This document shows, piece after piece, positions 12,647 to 38,598 of a stretch of 64,000 nt of DNA. The stretch's first letter is position 1. Every line of letters begins with the position of its first letter. The position numbers and the translations under genes were made by a program. Source of the stretch: Gammaproteobacteria bacterium (GTDB taxonomy: Bacteria > Pseudomonadota > Gammaproteobacteria > Eutrophobiales > Eutrophobiaceae); NCBI GenBank assembly GCA_965221695.1, contig OZ244905.1:1824001-1888000 (forward strand), read 5' to 3'. A model generated the notes under the pieces. That model was not told where the DNA came from. It saw only the letters and a list, made by a program, of their open reading frames with translations, and did not search any database.

Positions 12647-13783
12647 ATGACTATCCATCGATACCTGACAGCGAGTGTCAAGGCAGACCTGGCGGAAAAA
12701 ATGGTCTTTTTGGGTGGACCAAGGCAAGTGGGTAAAACGACGCTTTCCCTCAGCCTGATACCTGGCGCTGACGAGTCTCATCCGGCATACCTGAATTGGG
12801 ACTTGCACGAGGTCCAACGCATGCTCCTGAACGGGCAATTGCCGGCGGAGCAATCGCTGCTTATTTTAGATGAGATTCACAAGCACAAAGGCTGGCGCAA
12901 CCTGGTCAAGGGCTTTTACGATAAACACAGGTCAAATAAGCGTTTTCTCGTTACCGGCTCGGCGCGTCTGGATCATTATCGGCGCGGTGGCGATTCATTA
13001 CAGGGACGTTACCATTACTTGCGTCTGCATCCTTTTTCGTTATACGAATTGAATGCTGCGCCAACCGGGTCGGATTTATCGGCATTACTGCGTTATGGCG
13101 GTTTTCCCGAACCGTTTTTAAAGCAGAACACCCGTCATTGGAAAAGGTGGCAGAGGGAAAGACAAAGCCGTGTTATACAAGAGGACCTGGTCAACCTGGA
13201 AAACGTGAAGGAAGTATCGCAACTGGGTTTATTGGCCCGGATCTTGCCCGATAAGGTGTCTTCAACCCTTTCCGTCAACAACCTGAAACAAGACTTGTCT
13301 GTCGCCTATGAAACTGCGGAGAGGTGGGTCACGATCCTGGAAAACCTTTACTATTGTTACAGGATTTCGCCCTATGGGTTGCCCCACTTGCGCGCCTTGA
13401 AGAAAGAGAGGAAGCTGTATCTTTGGGATTGGTCTCTTTGTAGCGATGCCGGCGCGCGCTTCGAGAATATGGTCGCATCCCACTTGTTGAAGTATTGTCA
13501 TTTCCTGGAAGATACCGAAGGCGATGCGATGGCATTGACGTTTATTCGGGATGCGGCCGGGAGAGAGCTTGACTTTGTCGTGACGCAAAACGGCAAGCCA
13601 CTATTTGCGGTTGAATGCAAAACCGGGGAACGAAACCTGGGCAAGAACATCGCGTACTTTTCTCAACGCACCGATATTCCTTATTTTTACCAGGTACATA
13701 TCGGGGACAAAGACTACGAACAGCCGGAATTAAACGCCAGAGTTATTCCGTTTACTCGTTTTTGTGAATTGTTGAAATTATAA
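12647..13783 (+). CDS. AAA_14 / DUF4143 ATPase with C-terminal nuclease-like motif
   Basis: GPRQVGKT, ILDEIHK, TGSA, SLQGR, GGFPE, KLYLWD, ELDF..VECK. Confidence 0.9.
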   Translation: MTIHRYLTASVKADLAEKMVFLGGPRQVGKTTLSLSLIPGADESHPAYLNWDLHEVQRMLLNGQLPAEQSLLILDEIHKHKGWRNLVKGFYDKHRSNKRFLVTGSARLDHYRRGGDSLQGRYHYLRLHPFSLYELNAAPTGSDLSALLRYGGFPEPFLKQNTRHWKRWQRERQSRVIQEDLVNLENVKEVSQLGLLARILPDKVSSTLSVNNLKQDLSVAYETAERWVTILENLYYCYRISPYGLPHLRALKKERKLYLWDWSLCSDAGARFENMVASHLLKYCHFLEDTEGDAMALTFIRDAAGRELDFVVTQNGKPLFAVECKTGERNLGKNIAYFSQRTDIPYFYQVHIGDKDYEQPELNARVIPFTRFCELLKL

Positions 13784-14738: not shown

Positions 14739-15839
14739 TCACCTCACCGGCAGCGTCAGCGTGGGTCCCCTGGATTGGGTTTGACCGGCCTGCAGGTCGA
14801 ACAATTGTCTTAGCAGCATGAAGGTGGATTTAGTTTCGAGGTCAGTGTCTTCAATGTAGAACCAGTGGTTGCGGTAGTAGGTGGCGATGTACGCGTTTTC
14901 GGGTCGTTCGGTGGCGGATTTGACTTTGAACAAGCGGCCGGCCGGGGTGTTGTTCCAGTCGAATGCGCCGCCGGTTTTTGCTGTTGTGGTAGTAACAAGG
15001 CCGTCGTACCGATGGCGGGCCGGAATTTCGACATTTTGCGACAGGTAATACAGCAGGCCGGAGATGGAACGGGTGCGTACTGACCATTGCGTGTGTTTTA
15101 TTTCCAGGAAGTCTGTGCTCAATTCAAAGTCATTGATATTACGGTCCAGTTGCAGCAACTCATAAATCCGGTCAGTTTCATATTTGTGATCATCCTGGCC
15201 GGTAACCAGTCTGACGATGATGGCATCGCCGCCCTCATTTTGCCTGGCGCCGATTTCTATCAACTGTTTTTTTTGTAGCGCGCTCAATGCTTGCAGTAAA
15301 ACGCTGAATTGTTCGTGCTCAGGTTCATGCTTCGGGGTCGGCCCGGAGGCGTTGGGCGCGTTGTAGAGATCATTGATTCGTTCCAGGCACAGGCCGAACA
15401 CCCGATCGATATTCCAACCTGATTGTGTCAACACCAGGATGTCTTCCAGTTGCACGGGGCTGAGGATGCTCTTTAGCAGATCTTCACCTTGCAGGGGTGT
15501 GTAGGAAATTGTTGGTTTGTCGAAATAGGCGACCCCGGCGCCGGGGCTGATACTGTCGCTGCCCCCGAAATTGACTCCGGCATTGAGCCCGGCATTCGCG
15601 CTCAGCGACAGGCTAGCCGTCACGCTACCGATTTCCAGGAAAAAAGGCACATCACGGTAGCGCATCCGCACCAGGTTTTGCAGCATCTGCTCATTGATGG
15701 AGGCAATTATGGCTTGATTGTAGGCGGGATGCGTGCGTTCCAGGGCCGTCGGGCCGAACGCTGACTGGCAGCCGGATAGCAGGACCGGCAGTGTCAATAT
15801 AAGGAGGGCGCTAATAAGGCGGTTGCGCATGGTGGTCAT
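14739..15839 (-). CDS. Hypothetical lipoprotein
   Basis: Signal peptide with LLSG-C lipobox; 366-aa ORF; family not recognised by name. Confidence 0.8.
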   Translation of the reverse strand: MTTMRNRLISALLILTLPVLLSGCQSAFGPTALERTHPAYNQAIIASINEQMLQNLVRMRYRDVPFFLEIGSVTASLSLSANAGLNAGVNFGGSDSISPGAGVAYFDKPTISYTPLQGEDLLKSILSPVQLEDILVLTQSGWNIDRVFGLCLERINDLYNAPNASGPTPKHEPEHEQFSVLLQALSALQKKQLIEIGARQNEGGDAIIVRLVTGQDDHKYETDRIYELLQLDRNINDFELSTDFLEIKHTQWSVRTRSISGLLYYLSQNVEIPARHRYDGLVTTTTAKTGGAFDWNNTPAGRLFKVKSATERPENAYIATYYRNHWFYIEDTDLETKSTFMLLRQLFDLQAGQTQSRGPTLTLPVR

Positions 15840-16023: not shown

Positions 16024-16087
16024 TTTCTTGTGGACAGTATAACCCGGATATGGCATGATACGAATCGCATAACTCATCTCGGCCGAC

Positions 16088-17419
16088 ATGTCACGCAAAC
16101 ACGATAAATCAGCAGCACATTTTCAGAAGGCGTTGACTCGCCTGCCGCTGGGCGTGACTTCCAATTTTCGCTACTGGGGGGATGACAGAACGATTTACAT
16201 CAAACAGGGGAAAGGCGCCCGGATTTGGGATATCGACGGCAACGAATACATCGACTACCGCATGGGTTACGGCCCCGCTATCCTCGGGTACGCTGATGAA
16301 AGGGTCGACGAAGCCGCCCGTCACGGCATGGAGACAGGCGGCGTGTTCGCGCTGGCGACGGAGCTTGAATACCAGGTTGCTGAACGTCTTTGTAAGATGG
16401 CGCCGTCTGCCGAACAGGCGAGATTTTCCGTATCCGGAACGGAAGCGGTGATGGCTGCCTTGAGGCTGGCCCGAGCCTGTGCCGGTAAGGATGAGTACGT
16501 GCTGGTTGAAGGGGGTTATCACGGTATATTCAGCGAGGCGTTATGGTACTCTGAGGTCGAGAACTGGCAGGAAAAAGAAGGAGACCCGGCGCTGCTGCCC
16601 TATGGTGATGGCGTGCCAGACCTTTACCGCCACTTGGTTCACAGTGTTCCCTTGAACGATTCCGATCGCCTTGAAAGCCTGTTCCGACACCGCGCTGATA
16701 AAATCGCCGCATTCCTGATTGAACCTATCATGGGTAATTGCTGTTCCATCACCGCCAGCAACCAATACCTCAAGGATACGCGCGAACTGTGCAGCCGTTA
16801 TGACGTGATACTGATCATCGACGAGGTAAAAACCGGGTTCCGGGTCGCTAAAGGAGGCGCACAGGAACTGCTGGGGGTGGATGCGGACCTTTGCGCGTTT
16901 GCAAAAGCCATGGCCAACGGTTACCCGATTTCCGCGTTGGCCGGCAAGGAAGAATATATGCGCGCTATCGGAGACGGGGTGACCCATGGCGGCACTTACT
17001 GTGGCCACTCGGTCTCCCTGGCTGCCGCTGAAAGAACTCTGCAGATTCTCGATGAGACGGACGCGCTGGGATCCATCGCCGCCCGGGGCGAACAACTGCT
17101 GCAAGGCCTCGGCGAGGTATTGACCCGGCGCGGCATCCCTCATTGTTTTGTTGGTCATCCCTCCATGCCAGGATTATTCTTTAGTTCGGAACCGCCAAAT
17201 GACTACCGCGACTGGGCGCGTTCCGATTACACTTTCTACAAGGCGCTGGCGCCTAACCTGCATGACGCCGGCGTGCTGGTGGAACCTGATTCGCGCGAGC
17301 CGTGGTTCCTTTGCGAAGCCCACGATGAAGCCTGCATAGAAGAAACCGTGACAAAGTTTGAACAAGCGGTACACGTGACGCTCGAACAGCAACAGGGTAA
17401 GCGCTACGGAGCCGTCTAA
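16088..17419 (+). CDS. Class III PLP aminotransferase (GSA-aminomutase-like)
   Basis: WDIDGNEYID, SGTEA, GGYHG, EPIMGN, DEVKTGFR, FAKAMANG. Confidence 0.9.
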   Translation: MSRKHDKSAAHFQKALTRLPLGVTSNFRYWGDDRTIYIKQGKGARIWDIDGNEYIDYRMGYGPAILGYADERVDEAARHGMETGGVFALATELEYQVAERLCKMAPSAEQARFSVSGTEAVMAALRLARACAGKDEYVLVEGGYHGIFSEALWYSEVENWQEKEGDPALLPYGDGVPDLYRHLVHSVPLNDSDRLESLFRHRADKIAAFLIEPIMGNCCSITASNQYLKDTRELCSRYDVILIIDEVKTGFRVAKGGAQELLGVDADLCAFAKAMANGYPISALAGKEEYMRAIGDGVTHGGTYCGHSVSLAAAERTLQILDETDALGSIAARGEQLLQGLGEVLTRRGIPHCFVGHPSMPGLFFSSEPPNDYRDWARSDYTFYKALAPNLHDAGVLVEPDSREPWFLCEAHDEACIEETVTKFEQAVHVTLEQQQGKRYGAV

Positions 17420-17507: not shown

Positions 17508-19124
17508 GTGAAGCATTATGACGCAATCGTCATCGGCGCCGGTCACAATGGCCTGACCAATGCCGCATTCCTGGCCAAGGCCGGTTTGTCTGTGCTGGTC
17601 GTGGAAAAAAATCCCTGGATAGGCGGCGCGTCTGTCAGCCGCTCCTTGTACCCGGGCTGGACTTATTCCAACTGTTCCTATGTATGCAGCCTGTTCCGCC
17701 CGGAGATCTACCGCGACCTGGAGTTGGCGCGCCACGGCCTGCAGGTCATTCCTTATGAAGGCGGCATCACCTTTATGCGCAACGGGGATTATTTTGGTAG
17801 TTATGGCGACGAGGAGCGCCAGTATCGGGAAATGGCGAGGCATTCAAGACGCGATGCCGACGCGTATTTTCGCTATGAGGCGGATGTGATGCGTCAGACC
17901 CAACTGATACGTCCGCTGTTAATGCGGACACCGCCGGACCCGACATCGTTCAGACCCCGGGACATCATGGAATTGATCCATTTCATAAAATCCTACTGGG
18001 ACCTGGGCGAGGAAGCCCTGTGCGATACCGTCCGCTTTTGGACCATGAGCATCGGCGACTTTCTGGACGAATATTTTGAAACAGACGTGATCAAAGCACA
18101 CCTGGCCGGCAGCGGCATTATCGGCACCGCGCTGGGGGTTTATTCTCCGGGCTCGGCCTACGTGTTGCTGCATCATTATATGGGCGATGTGGACGGCAGT
18201 ATCGGCTCCTGGGGTTTTGCACGAGGCGGCATGGGCGCCATCGCCAATGCTCTGGCCGGCGCTTTCCAGGCCCATGGCGGCGAGATTAAAGTCGATGCAG
18301 GCGTTGACAAAATCCTTGTGGACGGACGACGCGTCAAAGGCGTGGCGCTGGAAAACGGCGACGAATTCCACGCCGATATCGTCGTTTCCAATCTCGATCC
18401 GAAACGCACCTTCCTGGACATCATGAATGCAAGAGACCTGCCGCCGGAGCTGGTGAGCAAAGCGCGCAACTTCAAGATTCGCGGCTCTTCCGGGAAGCTC
18501 AATATCGCCCTGGACGGCATGCCCTCGTTTCATGCCATCTCCGGCGACCATGAGTTGTTCAAAGCGGATTTTCATTTTATCGACTCGCTGGAACGCATGG
18601 AACTGGCCTACGATGACTGGAAAAACGGTACCTGGTCAAAAGATCCTTACCTCGATACCCTGATACCCACCCGCGTCGACCCGACCATGGCCCCGCCCGG
18701 CAAACACATGATGAGCGTATTTGTCCAATATTGCCCGCCGCAAGTGAACGGCGAGGACTGGACCGATGAGCAACGGGATCAGTTCGGGCAAACCGTGATT
18801 GACCAGATTTCGGAATACAGTCCTGATTTCAAGGATTTGATCCTGCATGCTGAAATCCGCACACCGCGGGAGTTGGAACAGGAAGTGGGGCTGACCGAAG
18901 GCAACATCTTCCAGGGTGAACTGACCTTCGACCAACTGCTGTTTAACAGGCCCTTCCCTGGCTATGCTCGCTATCGAGGGCCTCTGCAAGGCATGTACCT
19001 GTGTGGTTCCGGCACGCACCCGGGCGGCGGCGTAATGGGCGCGCCGGGCGCTAATGCCGCCAGGGAAATCCTGCGCGACCTGCGCCGCGCCAATGTCGTC
19101 CCGGAAACGTTTTGTGATGACTGA
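17508..19124 (+). CDS. FAD oxidoreductase, phytoene desaturase/PYROXD2-like (copy A)
   Basis: IGAGHNGL, RGGMG, GNIFQGEL, YLCGSGTHPGGGVMGAPG. Confidence 0.9.
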   Translation: MKHYDAIVIGAGHNGLTNAAFLAKAGLSVLVVEKNPWIGGASVSRSLYPGWTYSNCSYVCSLFRPEIYRDLELARHGLQVIPYEGGITFMRNGDYFGSYGDEERQYREMARHSRRDADAYFRYEADVMRQTQLIRPLLMRTPPDPTSFRPRDIMELIHFIKSYWDLGEEALCDTVRFWTMSIGDFLDEYFETDVIKAHLAGSGIIGTALGVYSPGSAYVLLHHYMGDVDGSIGSWGFARGGMGAIANALAGAFQAHGGEIKVDAGVDKILVDGRRVKGVALENGDEFHADIVVSNLDPKRTFLDIMNARDLPPELVSKARNFKIRGSSGKLNIALDGMPSFHAISGDHELFKADFHFIDSLERMELAYDDWKNGTWSKDPYLDTLIPTRVDPTMAPPGKHMMSVFVQYCPPQVNGEDWTDEQRDQFGQTVIDQISEYSPDFKDLILHAEIRTPRELEQEVGLTEGNIFQGELTFDQLLFNRPFPGYARYRGPLQGMYLCGSGTHPGGGVMGAPGANAAREILRDLRRANVVPETFCDD

Positions 19125-20676
19125 CCGTTACGATGCAATCGTCATAGGCGCCGGCCATAATGGCCTGGTTTGCGCCGCGTACCTGGCCCGCGCCGGTTAT
19201 TCAGTACTGGCGCTGGAAGCGAACGAGCAAGTCGGCGGCTGCGCCATCACCCGGGAGTTCGCTCCCGGCTATTCGGTCTCCGCCGGCGCGCACCTGTTGT
19301 GCGGATTGCCCGCGCGTATCGTCCACGACCTGGCGCCGGAACGGCGCGGCCTTCAATGGGCGGCCGCCGGCATGGATACGGTCGCGCTGGCGCCGGATGG
19401 CAATCACCTTACCTTGGGCCAGGATAGTGTGAACGGCCTTGAACTGCCCGGAGACGACCGCGCCGCATACCCCCTGTTCCTGCGCAAATACCGGCGCTTT
19501 GCCCGCTTGTTGCAAAAGACATTCCTGCGCCGACCTCCCCGGCTCGCCCATAATAGCCCGACGGAGCTGGCGCGCCTGGCCGGTCTGGCCCTGGAAGTGC
19601 GCCTGCTGGGCAAAGACCTGATGCGTGAATTGCTGCGCACCGGGGCAATCAATATCTACGATGTATTGCAGGAAACCTTCGCCGATAAGCGCTTGAAAGG
19701 CGCGCTCTCCCTGGATGCCCTGCTCGGCGCCAACCTGGGGCCGCGCTCGCCTGGTTCAGTCCTGACCTTCCTGTACCGATTGGCGGGACAGTGGGACCAT
19801 AGCGGCGTCTCGCTGCCCGCGGGAGGAATGAGCGCGCTGGCCCGCGCGCTGCGCAATGCCGCCGAGACCGCTGGGGTCGAGATCAGAACCGCGACACCGG
19901 TCAAGCGGGTGTTACTGGAACATGACCGGGCAGCCGGCGTAGAAACCGCATCAGGCGAACAGATAGCGGGGAGACTGATCGTATCCAATGCCGATCCGAA
20001 AACCACCTTCCTGCAACTGGTCGGAGCCAGGCACATGGAGACGGGTTTTGTCAGGCGCATTAATAATATTCGTATGCAGGGCAAGGCGGCCAAATTACAT
20101 CTCGCCCTGGACGGATTGCCGGAATTCCGGGGACTGACCGCGGCGCAAACGGGTCAAAGACTGCTGGTTGCGCCCTCGATGGATTATCTCGAGCAGGCAT
20201 TCGACGCCTCCAAGTACGGCAGGTTTTCTGAACAGCCAGCGCTGGAAATCAGTATCCCGACCAGCCACGACCAGAGCCTGGCGCCGTCCGGCAAGCATGT
20301 ATTGTCCGCCATCGTCCAGTACGTTCCCTTCCGGCTTCGTTCCGGTTGGGAAACCGGCAAAGACGCCCTTAAGCAATTGCTGATAAAACGCTTGGAGCAA
20401 TATGCGCCCGGCATCGGCAAGCAGGTAATTGCCGCAGAGTTGCTGGGGCCGCCGGACCTGGAAACAGAATTCAACATGCATGGCGGCCACTGGCATCACG
20501 GCGAATTAAGCATGGATCAATTTCTGATGCTACGGCCAGTCCCGAGCGCGGCGCGCTACCGCGCGCCGCTCACCGGACTGTACCTGTGCGGCGCCGGCTG
20601 CCACCCCGGCGGCGGTATAACCGGCTTGCCGGGATACAACGCCGCCAGGGAAATACTGAAACAGGAGAGGGCTTAA
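19117..20676 (+). CDS. FAD oxidoreductase, phytoene desaturase/PYROXD2-like (copy B)
   Basis: IGAGHNGL, GHWHHGEL, YLCGAGCHPGGGITGLPG; start overlaps the copy A stop. Confidence 0.9.
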   Translation: MTDRYDAIVIGAGHNGLVCAAYLARAGYSVLALEANEQVGGCAITREFAPGYSVSAGAHLLCGLPARIVHDLAPERRGLQWAAAGMDTVALAPDGNHLTLGQDSVNGLELPGDDRAAYPLFLRKYRRFARLLQKTFLRRPPRLAHNSPTELARLAGLALEVRLLGKDLMRELLRTGAINIYDVLQETFADKRLKGALSLDALLGANLGPRSPGSVLTFLYRLAGQWDHSGVSLPAGGMSALARALRNAAETAGVEIRTATPVKRVLLEHDRAAGVETASGEQIAGRLIVSNADPKTTFLQLVGARHMETGFVRRINNIRMQGKAAKLHLALDGLPEFRGLTAAQTGQRLLVAPSMDYLEQAFDASKYGRFSEQPALEISIPTSHDQSLAPSGKHVLSAIVQYVPFRLRSGWETGKDALKQLLIKRLEQYAPGIGKQVIAAELLGPPDLETEFNMHGGHWHHGELSMDQFLMLRPVPSAARYRAPLTGLYLCGAGCHPGGGITGLPGYNAAREILKQERA

Positions 20677-21860
20677 TGGTAGCTCGGGTCGCAGCGCAAC
20701 GGGTTTTACCCACGCCGTTTCATCGGCGCGCCGCAGCCGCGTGCGAGACCAATCTCTGGTCATCCTGGGCGGGATATACCGTCGTGGACTGCTATACCTC
20801 CGTGGAAGATGAATATTTCTCCATCCGTAACGCAAGCTCGGTGTTTGACCTCAGCCCCATGACCAAGTATCGCATCAGCGGTAAGGATGGGCTGGCCTAC
20901 CTGGACAAGCTGATGACGCGCAGGATGGACAAGCTGACCCCCGGGCAGGTCATGTACACACTCTGGTGCAATGATCAAGGGCGCCTGCTGGATGACGGAA
21001 CCGTCTTCCACCTGGGCGACAATCAATGGCGCTTGTGTTCCCAGGAACCACACCTGGACTGGCTGCTGGCAAGCGCCTTGGGTTTTGCTGTCGAGATTCG
21101 CGACGAATCGGAGGAACTGGCTGCCCTGGCTGTGCAAGGCCCCACTTCCTGCCGGACACTGAAAGCCATGGGCCTGGCAGATATCGAGCTACTCAAACCC
21201 TTTTCAGCGCGCGTTTTTCCATTTGAAAATAACGAACTGCTGATCTCGCGCACCGGTTTTACCGGCGACCTGGGTTATGAGTTATGGATGCAACCGGATG
21301 CTGCGGAATCCGTATGGGATGCCCTGTTCACGGCCGGCGCGCCGTTCGGCATCACGCCCATCGGCGGCCAGGCCCTGGATATTGCCCGCCTTGAGGCCGG
21401 TTTCATCCAGCCGGAAGCGGAGTTCATGCCTGCGGCCAACCTGGTGCGCCCGAACCGGGGCCGTTCCCCGTTCGAACTGGGTCTTGGCCACCTGGTGCAT
21501 CTCGACAAGCCGGTTTTCAACGGCAGACGGGCTTTGCTGGAAGAACAGCAACAAGGGTCGCGCTATCGCCTGGTCAGGCTGGATGTCGCCGGCAACAAGC
21601 CGGCCAGCGAAGCGTTTATTTACAATCACAAGGAGCAGGAGGTCGGGCACGTGACCTCGGCGGCCTGGTCACCCAGCGCCAAGATGAATATCGCCCTGGC
21701 CTCGTTGCAGATGCCCTGGGGCAGACCCGAGGATGAACTGTATGCGGAAGTATATTACGATAGCGAATTACAGTGGAACCGCCTCATGGCCCGCTGCAAA
21801 GTGGTGGAACACGCTTTTTTTGACCCGCCGCGACGGCGCAAGACCCCGGCGGATTGCTGA
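20676..21860 (+). CDS. GcvT/aminomethyltransferase family folate-binding protein
   Basis: TPFH, FDLSPM, DDGTV, LAVQGP, SRTGFTGDLGYE, ARLEAG; TAATG coupling. Confidence 0.9.
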   Translation: MVARVAAQRVLPTPFHRRAAAACETNLWSSWAGYTVVDCYTSVEDEYFSIRNASSVFDLSPMTKYRISGKDGLAYLDKLMTRRMDKLTPGQVMYTLWCNDQGRLLDDGTVFHLGDNQWRLCSQEPHLDWLLASALGFAVEIRDESEELAALAVQGPTSCRTLKAMGLADIELLKPFSARVFPFENNELLISRTGFTGDLGYELWMQPDAAESVWDALFTAGAPFGITPIGGQALDIARLEAGFIQPEAEFMPAANLVRPNRGRSPFELGLGHLVHLDKPVFNGRRALLEEQQQGSRYRLVRLDVAGNKPASEAFIYNHKEQEVGHVTSAAWSPSAKMNIALASLQMPWGRPEDELYAEVYYDSELQWNRLMARCKVVEHAFFDPPRRRKTPADC

Positions 21861-21914: not shown

Positions 21915-23309
21915 GTGAACAACTGCAAACAGACAACTCCGGAGGAACTGCAGGAATTTCTGGAAAGACACCCTGACACGAAGATGGTCGAACTCCTGCT
22001 GCCCGATATCAACGGTATCCTGCGGGGCAAACGTGTCGGCAGAGACGAACTCAATGCCTTGTACCGGCAGGGACTTAAAATGTGCGCCTCGACCCCGCTC
22101 ATCGACAGTCGCGGCGAAATTACCTTTGATATAAACCTGGGCACCCGGGACGGAGACCCGGATATCATGAGTTATCCGGTGGCCGGCACGCTGGCCCCGG
22201 TTCCCTGGTTGGGCGATTCAGCCATTGCTCAGGCATTTGTTACCTTGCGCGACCTGGATGGCGCGCCCTGGTTTGCTGACCCCCGTCAGGTATTGCGGCG
22301 CGTGTGCGACAAGCTGCAAGAACTGGGTTTGCGGGCGGTGGTCGCAACGGAATTCGAGTTTTACCTGCTGGAAACTGGGGAGGGCAATGCGCCACAGCCG
22401 CGTCTGGGCAGGATTCCCGGCACCGGACTGAAGCAACAAGGCCTGCAATATGCCAGCCTGGAGGATTTGTGGGAATGCGACCCGCTGCTCCGGGATGTGC
22501 AGCGCAACTGCGAAGCGCAAAACGTGCCCGCAAGCGCCGCGTTGCCTGAATTTTCTCCGGGGCAGTTTGAAATCAACCTTCACCACCAGGACGACCCGGC
22601 GCGCGCCTGCGACCACGGCGCAATGCTGAAACGCATCATCAAGGGAACCGCCTGCCGGCATGGACTGGGCGCGGCCTTCATGGCAAAACCCTTTGACAAC
22701 TACGCCGGCAGCGGGCTGCATATTCATGTCAGCCTGTTCGATGAGCAGGGAAACAATGTCTTCGCCGGCCCTGAAGACGAAACCAGGCCGTCCGTTTCCA
22801 GCGCGCTCAGGCATGCGGTAGGGGGGCTGCAACAGACCATGGCCGATGCCATGGCTTTGTTCGCTCCCAACGCCAATTCTTACCGGCGCCTGCAACCTGA
22901 CTCGTTTGTCCCGCTAAGTCCGAACTGGGGTTATAACCATCGGGCGGTTGCTTTGAGAGTGCCGGTGTGCGGCCGCCAGGATACCCGCATAGAACATCGG
23001 GTGGCAGGCGCGGATGCCAACCCGTACCTGGTAATGGCTGCGGTCCTGGCCGGCATTCATTACGGCATCACCCGTCAATGTGAACCAACTGAAATGATCG
23101 CTGAAGGGACTATGCTGGATAAACAGGAGATCGCCTTGCCGCGCCGTTGGGACGCAGCCCTGGACCGATTCCAGCACAGTGATGTGTTGCCGGAGTACCT
23201 GGGAGAGAAGTTTTGCCAGGTATTCGAGCTGGTCCGGCGCAGTGAGTGCGAACGCTTTCACAGCCAGGTCAGCAACCGTGATTACGAGTGGTATCTGCGC
23301 GGTGTTTAA
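21915..23309 (+). CDS. Glutamine synthetase-like gamma-glutamyl-amine ligase (PuuA/PauA family)
   Basis: DINGILRGKR, EFEFYL, PGQFEINL, FMAKP..GSGLHIH, RIEHRVAGADANPY. Confidence 0.88.
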   Translation: MNNCKQTTPEELQEFLERHPDTKMVELLLPDINGILRGKRVGRDELNALYRQGLKMCASTPLIDSRGEITFDINLGTRDGDPDIMSYPVAGTLAPVPWLGDSAIAQAFVTLRDLDGAPWFADPRQVLRRVCDKLQELGLRAVVATEFEFYLLETGEGNAPQPRLGRIPGTGLKQQGLQYASLEDLWECDPLLRDVQRNCEAQNVPASAALPEFSPGQFEINLHHQDDPARACDHGAMLKRIIKGTACRHGLGAAFMAKPFDNYAGSGLHIHVSLFDEQGNNVFAGPEDETRPSVSSALRHAVGGLQQTMADAMALFAPNANSYRRLQPDSFVPLSPNWGYNHRAVALRVPVCGRQDTRIEHRVAGADANPYLVMAAVLAGIHYGITRQCEPTEMIAEGTMLDKQEIALPRRWDAALDRFQHSDVLPEYLGEKFCQVFELVRRSECERFHSQVSNRDYEWYLRGV

Positions 23310-23442: not shown

Positions 23443-24633
23443 ATGTCTTCACTATCACAACTCATTGACAACCAGCCGGAAGGGTTTTCCCTGCAACAGG
23501 CATTTTACCGGGATGCCGATATATACCGGCGCGAACTGGAGCGGCTGTTTATGAAGTCCTGGTTGTATGCCGGGCATGTCAGCCAGATTCCAGAAACCGG
23601 CGATTATTTTCTGTATGAACTGGCCGATGAATCCGTGATCATCGTACGCGCAGGCGAGAATTCCATTAAGGCATTCCTGAACCTGTGCCGCCATCGCGGT
23701 TCCCGTATCTGCCTGGAAGCGGAAGGCCGGCAGAAACTGCTGGTATGTCCATACCATGGCTGGACTTACCAGCTTGACGGCGCGCTGCGGGGCGCCAACT
23801 ACACACCGCCGGATTTCCAACGTTCGAATTATGCTCTGCGCGAGGCGCGGCTGGAGACGCTGCACGGGATGATCTTCATCAATTTTGACGAACAGACAGC
23901 CTCTTTCCAGCCGCTACGGCGCGATTTGGACGACTGCCTGCAGCCCTACAGGCTGGAACAGACCAAGGTGGCTCACAAGCAGAGTTACCCTATCCAGGCA
24001 AACTGGAAACTGGCGCTGGAAAATTATTGCGAGTGCTATCACTGCGTTCCCGCTCACCCCGAGTATGCTGAAGGACATGGCCGCTCATTTCCTGAGAAGG
24101 AGATGTCCGGCCTGCTGAAGCAGGTCATGGAACGAGGTAAACGGCTGGGACTGACCGATCATTGCGTTGACAAGAGCTGGTTGCATTCCGGCGTCGCCAA
24201 CGCAGACCGCGGCTTTGATCGCTATCCCCTGCTGAACGGCTTTGTCACCGGCAGCCGGGACGGCAAACCCGTGGCGCCGCTGCTGGGAGACCTGCGCGGT
24301 TATGACGGCGGCGCAACTGATATTCAGATCGGGCCGTTCACCTTTGCCCTGGCCTACTGCGACCACTTGGTCATCTATCATTTTCGCCCTTTGAATGTAG
24401 CCGACTGTGTTTGTGACATCACCTGGCTGGTCAATGAAAACGCGGTAGAGGGAAAAGATTACCATCAAGAGGAGCTGATCTGGCTCTGGGACATCACTAC
24501 CGTTGCCGACAAACGCATTATCGAGGACAATCAGAAAGGCATAAATTCCGCGTTTTACCAGCCAGGACCTTATACCGGCATGGAAGGTTTCACCCGCGGG
24601 TTCATCGACTGGTATCTGCGCGCGATGAAATAA
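23443..24633 (+). CDS. Rieske non-heme iron oxygenase alpha subunit (GbcA/Stc2/CntA-like)
   Basis: CRHRG..CPYHGW Rieske motif; ENYCECYHCVPAHP iron site. Confidence 0.9.
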   Translation: MSSLSQLIDNQPEGFSLQQAFYRDADIYRRELERLFMKSWLYAGHVSQIPETGDYFLYELADESVIIVRAGENSIKAFLNLCRHRGSRICLEAEGRQKLLVCPYHGWTYQLDGALRGANYTPPDFQRSNYALREARLETLHGMIFINFDEQTASFQPLRRDLDDCLQPYRLEQTKVAHKQSYPIQANWKLALENYCECYHCVPAHPEYAEGHGRSFPEKEMSGLLKQVMERGKRLGLTDHCVDKSWLHSGVANADRGFDRYPLLNGFVTGSRDGKPVAPLLGDLRGYDGGATDIQIGPFTFALAYCDHLVIYHFRPLNVADCVCDITWLVNENAVEGKDYHQEELIWLWDITTVADKRIIEDNQKGINSAFYQPGPYTGMEGFTRGFIDWYLRAMK

Positions 24634-24635
24634 CG

Positions 24636-25289
24636 ATGCGCAAGAGAGATCCGGGGAGCATCCCCGACAACAGGACCCTGGCAAAACAACGCCGCCAGGA
24701 ACAACTCATCAAGGCCACTATACGCTGTGTTGCCAAACGCGGCCTTTCCGCTACGACTATGGCGGACATCACCCAAGAGGCGGGGCTTAGCCTGGGGATC
24801 GTCAACCTGCACTTCAAGAGCAAGGACAAGCTGTTACTGGAAACCCTGAAATATCTGGCGGAAGAATATCGCCAGGCATGGGAAAAAACGTTACGCACGA
24901 CAGGGCCGGGGCCGGCGGAGAAACTTGCCGCCCTGGTAGAACTGGATTTTAGCAAAGCGATCTGTGATCACAAAAAAATCTCGGTGTGGTTCGCCTTCTG
25001 GGGCGAGGCCCGCGCGCGCCCCGTCTATATGAAAACCTGCGCCGAATATGACCACTATTACGTGCAGGAGGAAGCGCAACTGTTTGCTGAAATACTGCGT
25101 GACGATGACAACAACCGCCTTGATCCGATGATGCTGGCTACGACACTGGATGCGCTTGTGGACGGTCTGTGGGTGGATATGCTGTCAGCGCGGAATGCAA
25201 TCAGCCGTAACCAGGCCAAGCAACTGGTGATGGACTATCTGTGCTCAGTCCTGCCGGATCATTTTCACCGCACCGCCGAGCCGGACTGA
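24636..25289 (+). CDS. TetR family regulator (BetI-like)
   Basis: RRQEQLIKATI..TTMADI..AGLSLGIVNLHFKSK; WFAFWGE; DGLW. Confidence 0.9.
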   Translation: MRKRDPGSIPDNRTLAKQRRQEQLIKATIRCVAKRGLSATTMADITQEAGLSLGIVNLHFKSKDKLLLETLKYLAEEYRQAWEKTLRTTGPGPAEKLAALVELDFSKAICDHKKISVWFAFWGEARARPVYMKTCAEYDHYYVQEEAQLFAEILRDDDNNRLDPMMLATTLDALVDGLWVDMLSARNAISRNQAKQLVMDYLCSVLPDHFHRTAEPD

Positions 25290-25375
25290 CCAACGATGGG
25301 GCAATCTCCGGATAACAGCGCCAGGGAGTGGGAGACGGGCCGGATGCGACGCAAACGAACGCGGCGGGTTTCACT

Positions 25376-26491
25376 ATGACGATGGCAGCGAACCGGCTTC
25401 CTCAGTATACAGGGAAGGCCATCCTGCTGATGCTGTTGGCGCTGTCATGCATGGCGCTTGCGGCGGAAGAAAAAGTCGTCAACATGTATAACTGGGCGGA
25501 CTATATCGGCCCGGCCACCATCGAAGATTTTGAACGGGAATACGGCATCAAGGTCAATTACGACATCTACGATACCACGGAGATTGTGGATGCCAAACTC
25601 ATGTCCGGCAATACCGGTTACGATGTCGTTGTGCATGCCGCGTCTTATTCCGCCCGCCTTATTGAGGCCGGCGTGTACCAGCCCTTGGAGCGCAGCCGCC
25701 TTGATAACTGGAAATATCTGGACCCGGACATTATGCAGATCATGGACGACTTCGACCCCGGAAACCGTTATGCGGCCCCGTATATGTGGGGAACGACTGG
25801 TATTTCCTATAACGTGGACATGCTCAGGGAACGCTACCCGGACGCGCCGCTGGATAGCGCCGATTTCTTTTTCAGGCCTGAAATCATTTCACGCTTTGCC
25901 GATTGCGGCGTGACCATGCTGGATGGCCCCATCGATGCGCTGCCTTCAGTCATGAGTTTCCTGGGTTATCCGGGCAATTCCATTGACCCGCAGCATCTGC
26001 GCGCGGCGGAACATGTGATGAAATCCATCCGGCCTTATATCCGCTATTTCAGTTCCGCCAAGATGCTGATCGACATGCCGAACAAGGAAGTATGCGTGGC
26101 CATGAGCTGGTCAGGTGATTATATCGTGGCCCGTAGCCGCGCCGCGGAGGCCGGCGTTGACATCAACCTGGCCTATGTCATGTCGAAAAACGCTGTTCAT
26201 ACCTGGATTGACTCCATGTTTATTCCCAGCGATGCCCCGCATCCGGACAACGCCCACCTCCTGGTCAACTTTCTGCTGCGCCCGGAGGTGATTGCGCAGG
26301 TTTCCAATTTCATTGGTTATGCCAACGCCAATCAGGCCGCGACTGCGCTGGTGGACCCGGACATTGCCGCAGACCCGGCCATTTATCCTGACGCCGATGT
26401 GCGCAGCCGCATGGAACTCTCCCTGGTCTATTCTCCCAAGATGGAGAGAAACCGGTCCCGGGCCTGGACGCGGATTAAATCAGGTCTTTGA
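25376..26491 (+). CDS. potF: Polyamine ABC transporter substrate-binding protein
   Basis: YNWADYI, TGYDVV, PYMWGTTG, WSGD, APHPDNA; signal peptide; alternative GTG start at 25328. Confidence 0.88.
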   Translation: MTMAANRLPQYTGKAILLMLLALSCMALAAEEKVVNMYNWADYIGPATIEDFEREYGIKVNYDIYDTTEIVDAKLMSGNTGYDVVVHAASYSARLIEAGVYQPLERSRLDNWKYLDPDIMQIMDDFDPGNRYAAPYMWGTTGISYNVDMLRERYPDAPLDSADFFFRPEIISRFADCGVTMLDGPIDALPSVMSFLGYPGNSIDPQHLRAAEHVMKSIRPYIRYFSSAKMLIDMPNKEVCVAMSWSGDYIVARSRAAEAGVDINLAYVMSKNAVHTWIDSMFIPSDAPHPDNAHLLVNFLLRPEVIAQVSNFIGYANANQAATALVDPDIAADPAIYPDADVRSRMELSLVYSPKMERNRSRAWTRIKSGL

Positions 26492-26511
26492 AAACTGTGG
26501 TGTAATACCAA

Positions 26512-27606
26512 GTGGACAAAACGCTCATTCAGATTGAAAACCTCTGTAAACATTACGGCGATTTTCCCGCTGTGCGTGACGTCAGTCTCGATATTTTCCA
26601 GGGTGAATTGTTTTCCATACTCGGTGGTTCGGGTTGCGGTAAGACCACCTTGCTGCGCATGCTGGCGGGATTTGAGCAACCGAGTTCCGGCAGGATCCTG
26701 ATCGATGGCATCGATATGGCCGGCGTGCCCCCCTATGAGCGCCCTGTCAATATGATGTTCCAGTCATATGCCATCTTCCCGCACATGAATGTTGAGGATA
26801 ACGTTGCCTACGGCCTGAAGAAAGAGGGCCTGCCGAAATCAGCGGCGCGCGCGCGGGTGGACGAAATGCTGGAACTGGTGCAACTGGCGGAGTTCGCCCG
26901 CCGCAAACCCCGACAGCTATCCGGCGGCCAGCGGCAACGGGTCGCCCTGGCGCGGGCGTTGGTCAAACGTCCTAAAGTCCTGCTTCTGGATGAGCCGCTG
27001 GCGGCGCTGGACAAGAAGCTGCGCGAGCGCACCCAGTTCGAGTTGATGAACATCCAGGACCAGACCGGCGTGACGTTTATCGTCGTCACTCATGACCAGG
27101 AGGAAGCCATGACCCTGTCGACCCGCATCGCAGTTATGCGCGAAGGCAGGTTTATCCAGTGCGGCGCGCCGCAACAGATCTACGAATATCCGGCGAACCG
27201 CTATGTTGCGGATTTTTTCGGAACCATCAATTTGTTCGAAGGCTTGGTCAGCCGCGTTGACGGTGACAACATAACAATAACATGCGCTGCGGTGAACGCT
27301 GACATCAAAGCAAAAACGACGACCCGGATCAACCGTTCCGATCGGCTGACGGTTGCCGTGAGACCTGAGAAAATCTCGATCTCGAAAAAACCTCCAGACG
27401 CCGGCGTTGCGGCCGCGCTGAAAGGGGTGGTCCTGGACCTGGGCTATTACGGGAGCCTATCCGTGTACCGCATCAGCACAGATGCGGGATTCGTTGTCCA
27501 AGTCAGCGCCCAGAACCGAATGCGCTCAGCCGAAAGAAGCCTGGAATGGGATGACGTGGTATACCTTTCCTGGGATATTGGCAGCAGCGTGGTATTAGCA
27601 GAATGA
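26512..27606 (+). CDS. potG: Polyamine ABC transporter ATPase
   Basis: GGSGCGKT, FQSYAIFPHM, LSGGQRQR, LLLDEP, TOBE tail. Confidence 0.9.
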   Translation: MDKTLIQIENLCKHYGDFPAVRDVSLDIFQGELFSILGGSGCGKTTLLRMLAGFEQPSSGRILIDGIDMAGVPPYERPVNMMFQSYAIFPHMNVEDNVAYGLKKEGLPKSAARARVDEMLELVQLAEFARRKPRQLSGGQRQRVALARALVKRPKVLLLDEPLAALDKKLRERTQFELMNIQDQTGVTFIVVTHDQEEAMTLSTRIAVMREGRFIQCGAPQQIYEYPANRYVADFFGTINLFEGLVSRVDGDNITITCAAVNADIKAKTTTRINRSDRLTVAVRPEKISISKKPPDAGVAAALKGVVLDLGYYGSLSVYRISTDAGFVVQVSAQNRMRSAERSLEWDDVVYLSWDIGSSVVLAE

Positions 27607-28499
27607 CACATTCGGACAAGCTTTGGCGGCTCGTGGTCATCTCCACGCCCTATCTGTGGCTGTTGGTTTTTTTTCTGTTGCCGTTCCTGTTCGTCCTCAA
27701 GATCAGTTTTGCCGATCCGATCGTCGCGCTACCGCCGTTTACCGCGCTATTCGATCCTGCCAGGGAAGGCGGACGCTGGTTCCAGATCACACTGGATAAT
27801 TACCGCTTCATACTCGAAGATGACCTGTATTGGATCAGTTACTTCAAATCGATCAGGATTGCCTTCATCTCGACCTGCCTGTGCCTGCTCATCGGATACC
27901 CGATGGCTTATGCCATCGCTCGGGCCGCGCCGGGCTGGCGCAACCTGTTTCTATTCCTGGTCATCCTGCCGTTCTGGACCTCGTTTCTGCTGCGGGTTTA
28001 CGCCTGGATGGGCATGCTGAGCACGAACGGCGTGATCAACAACCTGCTGATCGGGGCGGGTCTTATTGACCAACCCTTGAAACTGTTGTACACGGATTTT
28101 GCGGTCTATATGGGCATCATTTACTCGTACCTGCCATTCATGATCCTGCCGTTGTACGCCAACCTGGAGCGGTTGGACTACAGTCTGAACGAAGCGGCAG
28201 CGGATCTCGGCGCCAGGCCCCTGGCAATTTTCCGTGATATCACACTCCCTCTTTCCTTACCCGGCATTATCGCGGGCTGCCTGCTGGTGTTCATTCCTGC
28301 GCTGGGGGAATTTGTCATTCCGGCCTTGCTGGGCGGACTCGATTCGCTGATGATAGGCCGTACCCTGTACGATGAATTTTTTACCAATCGCGATTGGCCG
28401 CTGTCGTCAGCGGTTGCTGTTATCCTGTTACTCATCCTGGTGGCGCCCATCATGCTGTTCCAACATTACCAGGCGCGCGGGACCGCGGACCAACCATGA
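27603..28499 (+). CDS. potH: Polyamine ABC transporter permease
   Basis: LPFWTSFLLRVYAW, EAAADLGA, NRDWP. Confidence 0.9.
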   Translation: MTHSDKLWRLVVISTPYLWLLVFFLLPFLFVLKISFADPIVALPPFTALFDPAREGGRWFQITLDNYRFILEDDLYWISYFKSIRIAFISTCLCLLIGYPMAYAIARAAPGWRNLFLFLVILPFWTSFLLRVYAWMGMLSTNGVINNLLIGAGLIDQPLKLLYTDFAVYMGIIYSYLPFMILPLYANLERLDYSLNEAAADLGARPLAIFRDITLPLSLPGIIAGCLLVFIPALGEFVIPALLGGLDSLMIGRTLYDEFFTNRDWPLSSAVAVILLLILVAPIMLFQHYQARGTADQP

Positions 28500-28530
28500 T
28501 CTGCCAGCGTTCCATTGCGCGCCAGCCCCG

Positions 28531-28566
28531 CCATTACCGCGCAAGCGGAGATCCATTGGATTCCGG
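28531..28566. repeat. Degenerate REP remnant between potH and potI
   Basis: CCATTACCGCGCAAGCGGAGATCCATTGGATTCCGG resembles the REP pair at 353-446. Confidence 0.5.
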
Positions 28567-28581
28567 TTTACAGGACAAATC

Positions 28582-34927: not shown

Positions 34928-34983
34928 TATTCCTGTATCTGCCATCGGTTTGCAGAGCTCACCTACTGTGAGGCGCTCTGTTT

Positions 34984-36312: not shown

Positions 36313-36361
36313 TGCGTATCACGATGATCTCAGTGATTCGCTTGTTAGCATCGGATATATG

Positions 36362-36635: not shown

Positions 36636-36650
36636 ACCGGAGGAAACAAC

Positions 36651-38474: not shown

Positions 38475-38598
38475 CGCTGGATCAATGCCGGCAGCGCCGC
38501 CGTTGCCATCCCTGCTACGCGGCAACGGCAAAGTTCAGCGTAGATTATCCTCTACTCCAGAGCTGCGGGCAGCTTGAACAGCTTAAGGACCGTATCTG

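Follow-up and report, generated by a model that had tools for sequence, protein, structure and literature searches.

Three co-directional genes lie within the 64,000-nucleotide stretch of DNA analysed here (the window). They encode two FAD proteins, FlvA and FlvB, and a stand-alone GcvT-like protein, and their originally predicted extent holds. The longest open reading frames of the trio overlap by 71 and 91 bases; we assigned later starts because of N-terminal Rossmann motifs and Shine-Dalgarno-like sites. From these starts FlvB overlaps the FlvA stop by 8 bases and the GcvT-like gene overlaps FlvB by 1 base (TAATG), and the overlaps are therefore small and of the type associated with translational coupling. 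The original prediction that two paralogues of the phytoene-desaturase/PYROXD2 fold overlap each other and a GcvT-family gene is thus real, and the absence of carotenoid genes from the window was confirmed among its open reading frames of at least 150 aa. On the same strand the trio is surrounded by genes for a class-III aminotransferase, a glutamine-synthetase-like (GS-like) ligase, a Stc2/GbcA-like Rieske oxygenase, a BetI-type TetR regulator and PotFGHI.

Table 1 Genes of the trio and of the surrounding cluster, with positions in the window.
Feature	Position	Strand	Assignment
AT3	16088–17419	+	class-III (GSA-aminomutase-like) aminotransferase; Pfam Aminotran_3, 205 bits
FlvA	17508–19124	+	PYROXD2/CrtO-like FAD protein, 538 aa; GTG start, GGAGAA upstream
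FlvB	19117–20676	+	FAD protein, FlvA paralogue, 519 aa; ATG start
GcvT-like	20676–21860	+	stand-alone tetrahydrofolate-binding protein, 394 aa; ATG start, GGAGAG upstream
GS-like ligase	21915–23309	+	PuuA/GmaS type; Gln-synt_C, 315.8 bits
Rieske oxygenase	23443–24633	+	non-haem-iron, GbcA/Stc2 type; Rieske and Ring_hydroxyl_A domains
TetR regulator	24636–25289	+	BetI type; TetR_N and TetR_C_6 domains
ABC importer	25328–29412	+	PotFGHI type; NCBIfam PotF, PotG, PotH
PotF-like	25328–26491	+	
PotG	26512–27606	+	
PotH	27603–28499	+	
PotI	~28582–29412	+	
TonB-dependent receptor	32486–34927	+	Pfam, NCBIfam; homologues in 10/55 long loci
Second GS-like ligase	34984–36312	+	Pfam, NCBIfam
Aldehyde:ferredoxin-oxidoreductase family protein	36651–38474	+	Pfam, NCBIfam
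DAO-type flavoprotein	38599–39885	+	Pfam, NCBIfam; homologues in 11/55 long loci

We compared 79 loci fetched by similarity to FlvA (at least 51% identity) from Halieaceae, Porticoccaceae, Steroidobacteraceae, Woeseiaceae, Rhodobacterales, Hyphomicrobiales and other hosts. The full colinear trio is found in 59 of these loci and a frameshift-broken trio in 6; a further 12 run off the end of their contig, and in 2 the GcvT-like gene lies upstream on the opposite strand. Among the 67 informative loci the trio is colinear in 65, and none lacks the GcvT-like gene. FlvA and GcvT orthologues also share an identical pattern of presence and absence, occurring in the same 5 of 400 sampled gammaproteobacterial genomes (E ≤ 1e-150 and ≤ 1e-90, respectively, thresholds set after the paralogue scores had been seen; scoring covered the best 3–4 candidates of each genome, and genomes that are related do not count as independent), and they are adjacent in all seven copies within those genomes. 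One of the seven has the order FlvB-FlvA-GcvT, indicating that the composition of the trio is kept rather than its gene order, and this three-gene composition persists, permuted or not, across Gamma- and Alphaproteobacteria. We found no genuine fused form; six long proteins (P0124–P0127, P0129 and P0136) are, or resemble, frameshift read-throughs, as read or inferred. The arrangement of the trio is not due to chance.

The original prediction also called for complex modelling, which was run on the FlvB and GcvT-like pair. The pair passed with a score of 0.86 (runs 0.87, 0.86 and 0.86), compared to 0.00 for the best of three controls. Solved complexes attain this score mark in 116 of 157 cases and mismatched pairs in 2 of 215, counts that apply only roughly to this pair because the alignments were own-built. 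Contact agreement between the runs was 100%, partner pLDDT was at least 89, and no solved complex of a relative exists as a template to copy. K78 of the GcvT-like protein, inside the predicted FlvB interface, aligns with W476 of Tdm, which contacts another part of that protein. Conservation was not clearly raised at the interface of either FlvB (mean 0.553 vs 0.602 overall, equalled or exceeded by 7956 of 10000 random sets) or the GcvT-like protein (0.729 vs 0.649; 850 of 10000). According to the complex prediction, FlvB would be the subunit on which the GcvT-like protein docks.

Judged by family, the neighbours of the trio appear to be genes of amine import, N-demethylation and transamination. 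AT3 matches GntE best in NCBIfam (459.3 bits, below the 525 cut-off), has GSA aminomutases and amine/aldehyde transaminases as PDB relatives, and likely transaminates the demethylated product from amine to aldehyde; its orthologue is encoded in 26 of the 55 long loci, a number that rises to 35 when class-III aminotransferases of any kind are counted. The GS-like ligase, whose gene follows the trio in 20 of the 55, is closest in NCBIfam to gamma-glutamylputrescine synthetase (227.2 bits, below the cut-off of 650) and likely gamma-glutamylates an amine. Rieske oxygenases of the GbcA/Stc2 type form a class that N-demethylates quaternary ammonium compounds; the Rieske protein of the window, found in 39/55 long loci, scores 320.3 bits against GbcA (below the 670 cut-off) and matches 3n0q, 3vca and 4qup (‘Monoxygenase; demethylase’) at E ~1e-72 and carnitine monooxygenase at 1.6e-37. 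The TetR regulator (44/55, mostly divergent from the operon) scores 117.9 bits against BetI PRK00767, with a cut-off of 118.

The Pot importer (32/55) matches the NCBIfam models for PotF (380 bits), PotG (458) and PotH (395), each below the equivalog cut-off. Its PotF-like binding protein aligns with E. coli PotF at E 5e-101 and retains the aromatic and acidic residues of the putrescine site, and in the 29 cluster-linked binding proteins W is invariant at position 276 and E never occurs at position 185. As the only PotF-family binding protein in the genome, it may simply import putrescine. The genes from 32486 to 39885 probably belong to the system as accessories, a membership that we infer. 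AT3, the trio, the Rieske genes and PotFGHI form one co-directional block in alphaproteobacterial loci, and a Leisingera locus has a BCCT transporter together with a GbcB-like reductase. The link to polyamines does not hold for every locus, since several (L023, L031 and L062) hold the trio without a nearby transporter, aminotransferase or Rieske gene. Our favoured reading is that the trio is probably one heteromeric, split, THF-linked oxidative flavoprotein N-demethylase, acting on a methylated substrate like a di- or polyamine.

Alternatively, the trio might be a dehydrogenase of dimethylamine, methylamine or another small methylamine that feeds methylene-THF, with the GS-like ligase acting as gamma-glutamylmethylamide synthetase and the Pot importer and aminotransferase serving a separate polyamine route. 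The loci in which the trio stands alone or with TetR only, the GS-like gene that follows the trio, the absence of any Tdm found in the genome, and the association of plasma dimethylamine and urinary trimethylamine with the human PYROXD2 locus (excerpts of PMC3169529) would all agree with a small substrate. However, we consider it unlikely: the ligase is nearer to gamma-glutamylputrescine synthetase than to the GmaS-containing type III family (198 bits), and in the PDB it matches glutamate–methylamine ligase (4.5e-28) more weakly than true GS (1e-41). Furthermore, the aminotransferase and importer are frequent partners that would have no role for C1 amines, and the alphaproteobacterial loci join them to the trio in a single block.

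It seems quite improbable that FlvA and FlvB are a polyamine oxidase or dehydrogenase that cuts internal C-N bonds of spermidine-like compounds, with a GcvT-like protein that is non-catalytic or has some other folate-linked role. Pfam family PF01593 does include polyamine and putrescine oxidases, putrescine oxidase is a structural neighbour of FlvA (TMq 0.59), and the PotFGHI, GS-like and DAO neighbours are classic genes of polyamine catabolism. Cleavage of propyl or butyl C-N bonds, however, would yield C3/C4 aldehydes that a GcvT-fold protein could not accept, and the GcvT-like gene is missing from no informative locus and keeps its folate-site residues. The accompanying Rieske enzymes are of the N-demethylase type.

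The folate site supports the favoured reading of an N-demethylase. The GcvT-like protein matches Pfam GCV_T (188.7 bits) and GCV_T_C (36.6 bits); in the PDB it is nearest to the C-terminal THF domain of TMAO demethylase (E 1.2e-47), with T proteins coming next, and it also aligns with the folate domains at the C termini of 5l46, 4p9s and 1pj5. R82, D106, D107 and the SRTGFTGDLGYE block do not vary among 60 orthologues. The conserved R82 and R386 correspond in the alignment to R480 and K782 in the lining of the THF funnel of Tdm, and the homologous domain of Tdm binds THF and receives channelled formaldehyde (excerpts of PMC13619132). The Tdm equivalog model itself is matched only in its C-terminal half, with 251 bits against a cut-off of 1100.

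That the GcvT-like protein could instead be the glycine-cleavage T protein of the organism, working with GcvH while the flavoproteins replace the other components, is highly improbable. The genome does encode GcvH, and a search of it gave no second T protein of canonical size, but the GcvH gene lies ~680 kb from the trio, and glycine decarboxylase P protein (GDC-P) has no match anywhere in the genome (completeness 96.85%). The GcvT-like protein also misses the curated gcvT cut-offs (161 vs 235.85 and 213.4 vs 300) and has SPMTK in place of the SHMG motif of T proteins, and the trio recurs in many genomes as a catabolic accessory (5/400 sampled). The lack of gcvH and gcvP in the window, as originally noted, therefore extends to the whole genome for gcvP, whereas GcvH is encoded elsewhere. 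Because the P protein and a canonical T protein are absent from the genome, the GcvT-like protein has no glycine cleavage system to serve.

FlvA and FlvB are 35% identical (183/524, E 3e-100), both carry the two FAD motifs, and both match Pfam Amino_oxidase above its cut-off (51.9 bits for FlvA). Conservation within the trio is highest for FlvA, whose mean column identity is 73% in 57 orthologues, with both dinucleotide-binding motifs conserved. In 60 FlvB orthologues G11, G13, N15, G16 and H496-P497-G498-G499 are conserved, together with the FlvB-specific W459-H460-H461. The closest folds to the predicted FlvA model (pLDDT 86) are 4rep and 4dgk, two carotenoid desaturases, followed by the flavin amine oxidases and dehydrogenases NicA2, MAO and putrescine oxidase. 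It is hardly credible that the pair are desaturases or ketolases of carotenoids or other isoprenoids, as their source-database name ‘phytoene dehydrogenase-like protein’, their best NCBIfam model (CrtO, 304.6 and 244.6 bits), the top structural neighbours (gamma-carotenoid desaturase and CrtI) and two SQS_PSY-family genes far from the window might suggest, since the scores fall far below the curated cut-offs (1000 for CrtO; 116.2 bits against 238.1 for FlvA and crtI_fam), none of the eight CrtI-like paralogues in the genome reaches the CrtI cut-off, the window lacks crt genes, the invariant partner is a folate protein within amine-catabolism clusters, and bird PYROXD2 had no carotenoid-metabolising activity in cell assays, according to excerpts of bioRxiv 10.1101/2024.11.26.625526.

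Both flavoproteins share a subfamily with the orphan human enzyme PYROXD2. Eukaryotic PYROXD2-type proteins (P0132 and P0131, one so named by its source) are 34–36% identical to FlvA over the full length, and the closest ESM Atlas clusters bear the PYROXD2 name. Orthology is not established, since another paralogue in the genome is almost equally near (35%, 315 bits). PYROXD2 is, to our knowledge, a single gene without an FlvB-like or dedicated GcvT-like partner, whereas FlvA has both beside it. The original statement that human PYROXD2 variants are linked to methylamine and methyl-lysine metabolite levels holds: besides the methylamines described above, the locus is tied to N6-methyllysine and N6,N6-dimethyllysine (excerpts of PMC8109053).

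Known N-demethylases share parts of this design. In dimethylglycine dehydrogenase/oxidase, sarcosine dehydrogenase and 4-methylaminobutyrate oxidase, an FAD part fused to a GcvT-like part oxidises the N-methyl group and the GcvT fold traps the carbon on THF. The flavin part of the trio, in contrast, has a CrtI/PYROXD2-type amine-oxidase fold rather than the DAO fold, and is split into two paralogous subunits with a separate folate polypeptide; the classic fused form also occurs in the genome (an 805-aa DAO-GcvT protein). SoxBDAG heterotetrameric sarcosine oxidase and N-methylglutamate dehydrogenase are likewise multi-subunit and THF-linked. In sarcosine oxidase SoxA unites the GcvT-like part with a second nucleotide-binding module, while the catalytic flavoprotein, SoxB, is a separate subunit; the predicted FlvB-GcvT contact resembles this split. 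However, the trio lacks SoxD and SoxG counterparts, differs in flavoprotein fold, and falls short of the soxA and soxB models, whereas two genuine Sox sets in other parts of the genome satisfy them. Tdm also differs, in that its folate domain is fused to a catalytic part that is not a flavoprotein but a Zn-containing N-terminal domain.

At the pathway level, the cluster shares the logic of GbcAB-DgcAB-SoxBDAG and Stc2, in which a Rieske enzyme takes the quaternary methyl group and flavoproteins the later ones, and its BetI-type regulator is a further likeness to glycine betaine demethylation. It misses every curated cut-off, its importer is of the Pot rather than the betaine type, and the aminotransferase in the operon points to an amine, not glycine, as the end product. 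PotFGHI-type import, GS-like gamma-glutamylation, a DAO-type oxidase and an amine transaminase recall Puu/Pau/Spu polyamine catabolism, which, unlike the cluster, has no folate-linked demethylase, Rieske oxygenase or CrtI-like flavoproteins.

In the proposed scheme, where the chemistry, the part played by either flavoprotein, the electron acceptor and the substrate are all inferred, PotFGHI would import a cationic, putrescine-like methylated di- or polyamine. A quaternary N-methyl group is not oxidisable by a flavoprotein, and the Stc2/GbcA-like Rieske oxygenase would handle any such group, leaving the remaining methyl groups to the trio. The flavin of the FlvA/FlvB pair would oxidise a secondary or tertiary methylamine at its N-methyl C-H bond, giving an iminium, and the GcvT-like subunit docked on FlvB would trap the one-carbon unit on THF as 5,10-methylene-THF, releasing the demethylated amine. 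The primary amine may then be removed by the class-III aminotransferase or by a GS-like/DAO gamma-glutamyl route, and expression would be controlled by the BetI-type TetR. The original proposal that a flavoprotein pair works with GcvT in trans is supported by conservation, co-occurrence, the FlvB and GcvT prediction, the folate-site residues, the absent glycine cleavage system, the amine-type neighbours and the association of the human PYROXD2 locus with methylated amines. No description of such an enzyme was found in the literature searched, and the trio most likely forms an undescribed enzyme that removes methyl groups from amines and passes their carbon to folate.

The two PYROXD2/CrtO-like FAD proteins, FlvA and FlvB, and the stand-alone GcvT-like protein (together, the trio) are encoded in a single-contig genome of 3.54 Mb by three co-directional ORFs lying between 17508 and 21860. 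With the longest possible starts these ORFs overlap by 71 and 91 bases; N-terminal Rossmann motifs and Shine-Dalgarno-like sequences led us to the corrected starts listed in the table. FlvA and FlvB share 35% identity across their full length (183/524, E 3e-100) and the corrected overlaps are 8 and 1 bases, in line with the original prediction of two divergent flavoprotein paralogues that overlap each other and a GcvT-family gene. The trio sits within a co-directional block that also encodes a class-III aminotransferase (AT3), a glutamine-synthetase (GS)-like ligase, a Rieske oxygenase, a BetI-type TetR regulator and a PotFGHI importer. The nearest solved relatives of the Rieske protein are 3n0q, 3vca and 4qup ('Monoxygenase; demethylase'), at E about 1e-72, and we take 3vca and 4qup to be the stachydrine demethylase Stc2. 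Downstream of the block are genes for a TPR-sulfotransferase, a TonB receptor, a second GS-like ligase, an aldehyde:ferredoxin oxidoreductase (AFOR) family protein and a DAO-family flavoprotein. A sequence scan for promoters and terminators was uninformative, returning 5 promoter-like sites vs 8.4 expected, one of them upstream of AT3, and no prominent intergenic terminator. An operator search by inverted repeats gave a single 10-nt palindrome and nothing else.

Features of the trio, its cluster and its surroundings (window positions, except where contig C1 of the window's own genome is named)
Feature	Position	Strand	Remarks
AAA_14/DUF4143 ATPase	12647-13783		just upstream of cluster
366-aa protein, no family match	14739-15839	-	just upstream of cluster; kept in the two closest relatives only
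Promoter-like site	16031-16059		upstream of AT3
10-nt palindrome	16075-16090
Co-directional block	16088 to about 29412	+	contains the trio
Class-III aminotransferase (AT3)		+	upstream end of block, before trio; best model GntE, 459 bits vs cut-off 525
FlvA	17508-19124	+	start GTG 17508
FlvB	19117-20676	+	start ATG 19117; 8-base overlap with FlvA
GcvT-like gene	20676-21860	+	start ATG 20676; one-base overlap with FlvB (TAATG)
GS-like ligase		+	in block, after trio; best model gamma-glutamylputrescine synthetase, 227 bits vs 650
Rieske oxygenase		+	in block, after GS-like ligase; GbcA 320 bits vs cut-off 670
BetI-type TetR, then PotFGHI		+	downstream end of block
279-aa protein, no family match	29428-30267
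TPR-sulfotransferase	30275-32278		TPR-repeat protein fused to sulfotransferase domain
AFOR family protein	36651-38474		AFOR_N + AFOR_C, tungsten-enzyme family; between GS-like ligase and DAO flavoprotein
DNA methylase and helicase-nuclease	40015-46244		1033 aa (N6_N4_Mtase) and 1043 aa (ResIII/SNF2)
GcvH gene	C1: 1163221-1163580
Six further CrtI/PYROXD2-like paralogues (L009-L013)	C1: 691359-694508, 876458-878044, 1374045-1375637, 2540859-2542439, 3308287-3309837

Farther along the window, the methylase and helicase-nuclease genes resemble a type III restriction-modification system. They lie in a stretch whose G+C is lower, at 0.44-0.49 vs about 0.55, so the region is probably an acquired island.

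Both flavoproteins belong to the flavin amine oxidase superfamily, scoring 51.9 (FlvA) and 74.6 bits (FlvB) against a gathering score of 19.8 for Pfam Amino_oxidase (PF01593). A GxGxxG-type N-terminal dinucleotide motif and a C-terminal HPGGG-type motif are kept across the orthologues of each. FlvA is the most conserved member of the trio, with a mean column identity among orthologues of 73%, compared to 64% for the GcvT-like protein and 58% for FlvB. Its predicted model (pLDDT 86, pTM 0.88) has one long low-confidence stretch, the invariant GNIFxGE loop, for which the FlvB equivalent is HWHHGE. The folds nearest this model are two carotenoid desaturases, followed by the flavin amine oxidases/dehydrogenases NicA2, MAO and putrescine oxidase. 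A carotenoid function, which the fold might suggest, is rejected: FlvA and FlvB reach 116.2 and 142.8 bits against the crtI_fam cut-off of 238.1 (TIGR02734) and 304.6 and 244.6 bits against the CrtO cut-off of 1000 (NF045689), and, as the original prediction held, the window contains no carotenoid gene (crtB, crtE, crtY and the like), the SQS_PSY genes of the genome lying >1 Mb away. None of the 8 CrtI-like paralogues of the genome reaches the crtI_fam cut-off. Six of these paralogues lie outside the trio; two come immediately after TonB-dependent receptor genes, two adjoin CN-hydrolase genes, and a LigM/DesA-like folate O-demethylase is encoded about 6 kb from one adjacent pair. None of the six has an adjacent GcvT-like gene.

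The GcvT-like protein is a member of its superfamily, with 188.7 bits vs 25.6 for GCV_T (PF01571) and 36.6 vs 25.9 for GCV_T_C (PF08669). Among 60 orthologues D106, D107 and R82 do not vary, conservation of R386 is 90% or more, and in the alignment the acidic pair corresponds to the DD pair of the TMAO demethylase Tdm and of T proteins, and R82/R386 to Tdm R480/K782 of the tetrahydrofolate (THF) funnel, suggesting that the folate site is retained. According to PMC13619132, the homologous domain of Tdm has a Kd of about 149 nM for THF, and formaldehyde reaches it by way of a tunnel. A role in glycine cleavage is rejected. The protein falls below the scores of canonical T proteins (161 bits vs 235.85 for TIGR00528, 213.4 vs 300 for PRK00389), and SPMTK stands at the SHMG position of the B. 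subtilis and T. maritima T proteins. A genome-wide search (completeness 96.85%) gave no match to the P protein (GDC-P), so that the absence of gcvH and gcvP noted for the window extends for the P protein to the whole genome, and GcvH is encoded about 680 kb from the trio. The genome holds no T protein of canonical size; the remaining GCV_T matches in it comprise two SoxA-type proteins, a DAO-GcvT fusion, a LigM/DesA-like O-demethylase and two hits that are short or weak. There are two SoxBDAG-type sets (L094, L095), and the fused protein, of 805 aa, is followed by a GbcA-like Rieske gene (L014). The genome is rich in folate-linked demethylases and apparently lacks glycine cleavage.

The three genes stay together across a wide range of bacteria. 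We collected 79 loci from species genomes with FlvA as the query, and 59 contain the full colinear FlvA-FlvB-GcvT arrangement. The trio carries frameshifts in 6 others, the contig ends before the GcvT position in 12, and the GcvT-like gene lies upstream on the other strand in 2 loci of Acidobacteriota; none of the 67 informative loci lacked a GcvT-like gene. Carriers include Halieaceae, Porticoccaceae, Steroidobacteraceae, Woeseiaceae, Rhodobacterales, Hyphomicrobiales, Kiloniella and others; cultivable ones are, for instance, Kiloniella laminariae DSM 19542, Leisingera sp. JC11, Hoeflea sp. TYP-13 and Lentisalinibacter orientalis. Within 400 evenly drawn Gammaproteobacteria, orthologues of FlvA (E<=1e-150) and of the GcvT-like protein (E<=1e-90) occurred in exactly the same 5 genomes, the window's own included, and were side by side in 7/7 copies; these thresholds were set after the paralogue scores had been seen, and scoring was confined to the best candidates of each genome. 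The trio occurs three times in one genome of this sample (G238), and one copy (L096; G238 C18:66000-82000) is permuted to FlvB-FlvA-GcvT beside TPR-sulfotransferase and TonB receptor homologues, indicating that selection keeps the three-protein composition and not a particular order. In the 55 loci that span 17 kb or more, the genes found nearby were those for a TetR regulator (44), a Rieske oxygenase (39), a class-III aminotransferase (35), a Pot importer (32), a GS-like ligase (20), a DAO flavoprotein (11) and a TonB receptor (10). The Leisingera locus additionally has a BCCT transporter and a GbcB-like reductase. Several loci of Halieaceae/Porticoccaceae type also have homologues of the TPR-sulfotransferase and of the 279-aa protein next to the trio.

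The original prediction had proposed structure prediction of all three proteins together; the pair run was FlvB with the GcvT-like protein, using a 60-row alignment for each, and this pair passed at 0.86 (runs 0.87, 0.86 and 0.86) vs 0.00 for the best of three controls. At that mark a benchmark accepts 116/157 solved complexes and 2/215 mismatched pairs, counts that are only roughly valid here because custom alignments were used. The runs agreed in 100% of contacts, with a partner pLDDT of at least 89. We found no solved complex of a FlvA/FlvB relative with a GcvT-fold protein, which makes it unlikely that the predictor reproduced a structure already known to it. The predicted interface would be formed by loop 303-313 and residues 477 and 484 of FlvB and by residues 71-79, 99-100, 129-137 and 279-285 of the GcvT-like protein, with 99-100 close to the invariant D106/D107. 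GcvT K78 aligns with Tdm W476, which, according to PMC13619132, contacts another part of Tdm. Conservation of the predicted interface residues is not clearly above average. We also searched for longer proteins that join the partners (10 matches with FlvB; 19 with GcvT at E<=1e-40). Apparent fusions of FlvA-FlvB (P0124-P0127) and FlvB-GcvT (P0129, P0136) were found, but the four that we inspected (P0124, P0126, P0129 and P0136) all have Arg-rich out-of-frame junctions and so are frameshift read-throughs, and natural fusions were rejected as support for the trio.

The chemistry proposed for the trio is that of the DMGDH and heterotetrameric sarcosine oxidase (Sox) families, although it is a member of neither. 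In DMGDH, SARDH and DMGO a DAO-fold FAD domain is fused to a GcvT-like domain, whereas the trio consists of separate genes with a CrtI-like flavoprotein fold, and the Pfam DAO match is limited to the Rossmann part (residues 5-101). Against the sarcosine oxidase models (TIGR01373, TIGR01372 and TIGR01375), the GcvT-like protein scores 140.8 bits vs 1164 as soxA and FlvB 24.2 vs 529 as soxB, and neither soxD nor soxG is present in the cluster. Within the limits of computation, the analysis supports the proposal that a flavin fold unlike that of DMGDH/SARDH pairs with GcvT in trans. On sequence comparison and modelling, we consider it fairly probable that the trio is a split THF-linked flavoprotein N-demethylase for a methylated di- or polyamine-like compound.

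The neighbouring genes bear on the substrate. The type of Rieske demethylase, the BetI-type regulator and the BCCT transporter of one relative suggest a compound bearing at most three N-methyl groups, with a primary amine as its end product. The PotF-like substrate-binding protein (SBP) is about equally similar to E. coli PotF and Pseudomonas SpuD (E about 1e-101). We located its putrescine-site residues by counting along the alignment, using a residue list from the literature. W37, D39, Y40, W244, D247, D278 and Y314 are retained, and the substitutions are S38A, S85A, F88Y, E185D and F276W. Position 276 is W in all 29 cluster-linked SBPs, 185 is E in none, and 38 is S in 4/29. Such a pattern would accommodate a diamine of which one end, bulkier and less prone to hydrogen bonding, is methylated. 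The idea that this SBP is a specialised paralogue is weakened in this genome, where it is the sole PotF-family SBP at E<=1e-15. The AFOR protein may oxidise aminoaldehydes of the amine pathway; the host that carries its gene resembles an aerobic marine heterotroph.

FlvA is also related to eukaryotic proteins over its full length, sharing 34% of residues with P0132 (316 bits) and 36% with P0131 (349 bits), one of which is named a pyridine nucleotide-disulfide oxidoreductase domain protein by its source; the Atlas clusters nearest FlvA bear the same domain name. The genomic paralogue at L010 is almost as close to a eukaryotic PYROXD2-type protein (35%, 315 bits). The module is common in metagenomes, marine and soil ones among them: at least 8000 FlvA relatives were scored, 74-89% identical among the matches listed and carrying generic names only. 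The statement that human PYROXD2 variants track methylamine and methyl-lysine levels was borne out by two studies: in one, urinary trimethylamine and plasma dimethylamine have an mQTL at the PYROXD2 locus (PMC3169529), and in the other a missense variant accounts for about 50% of the variance in N6-methyllysine and 48% of that in N6,N6-dimethyllysine (PMC8109053; plasma N6-methyllysine). In a further study, a bird PYROXD2 showed no carotenoid-metabolising activity in cell assays (bioRxiv 10.1101/2024.11.26.625526). The open-access article texts searched contained no description of the bacterial trio and no reaction or biochemical function for PYROXD2.

A more detailed scheme, which we regard as unlikely to hold in all its parts together, is that FlvA and FlvB would both be catalytic and would carry out successive demethylations (tertiary to secondary to primary amine) in one complex, with one folate subunit serving both. 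As natural substrates we envisage N-methylated compounds built on putrescine, cadaverine or propylamine, for example the long-chain N-methylated polyamines that diatoms contain; TonB receptors and the modified PotF (W276, without E185) would bring them in. Human PYROXD2 would by homology be the demethylase long sought for free N6-methyl- and N6,N6-dimethyl-lysine and for related methylamines.

To our knowledge, folate-capturing oxidative N-demethylation is known only from DAO-fold flavoproteins (DMGDH, SARDH, Sox and Mgd) or the Zn enzyme Tdm. If the trio is indeed a THF-linked N-demethylase, two CrtI/PYROXD2-type flavoproteins with a free GcvT-like subunit would be a third solution and a new enzyme class in marine and soil nitrogen and one-carbon cycling, and thousands of 'phytoene dehydrogenase' annotations would need correction. 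The N-demethylase reading also supplies a concrete, assayable candidate reaction for human PYROXD2.
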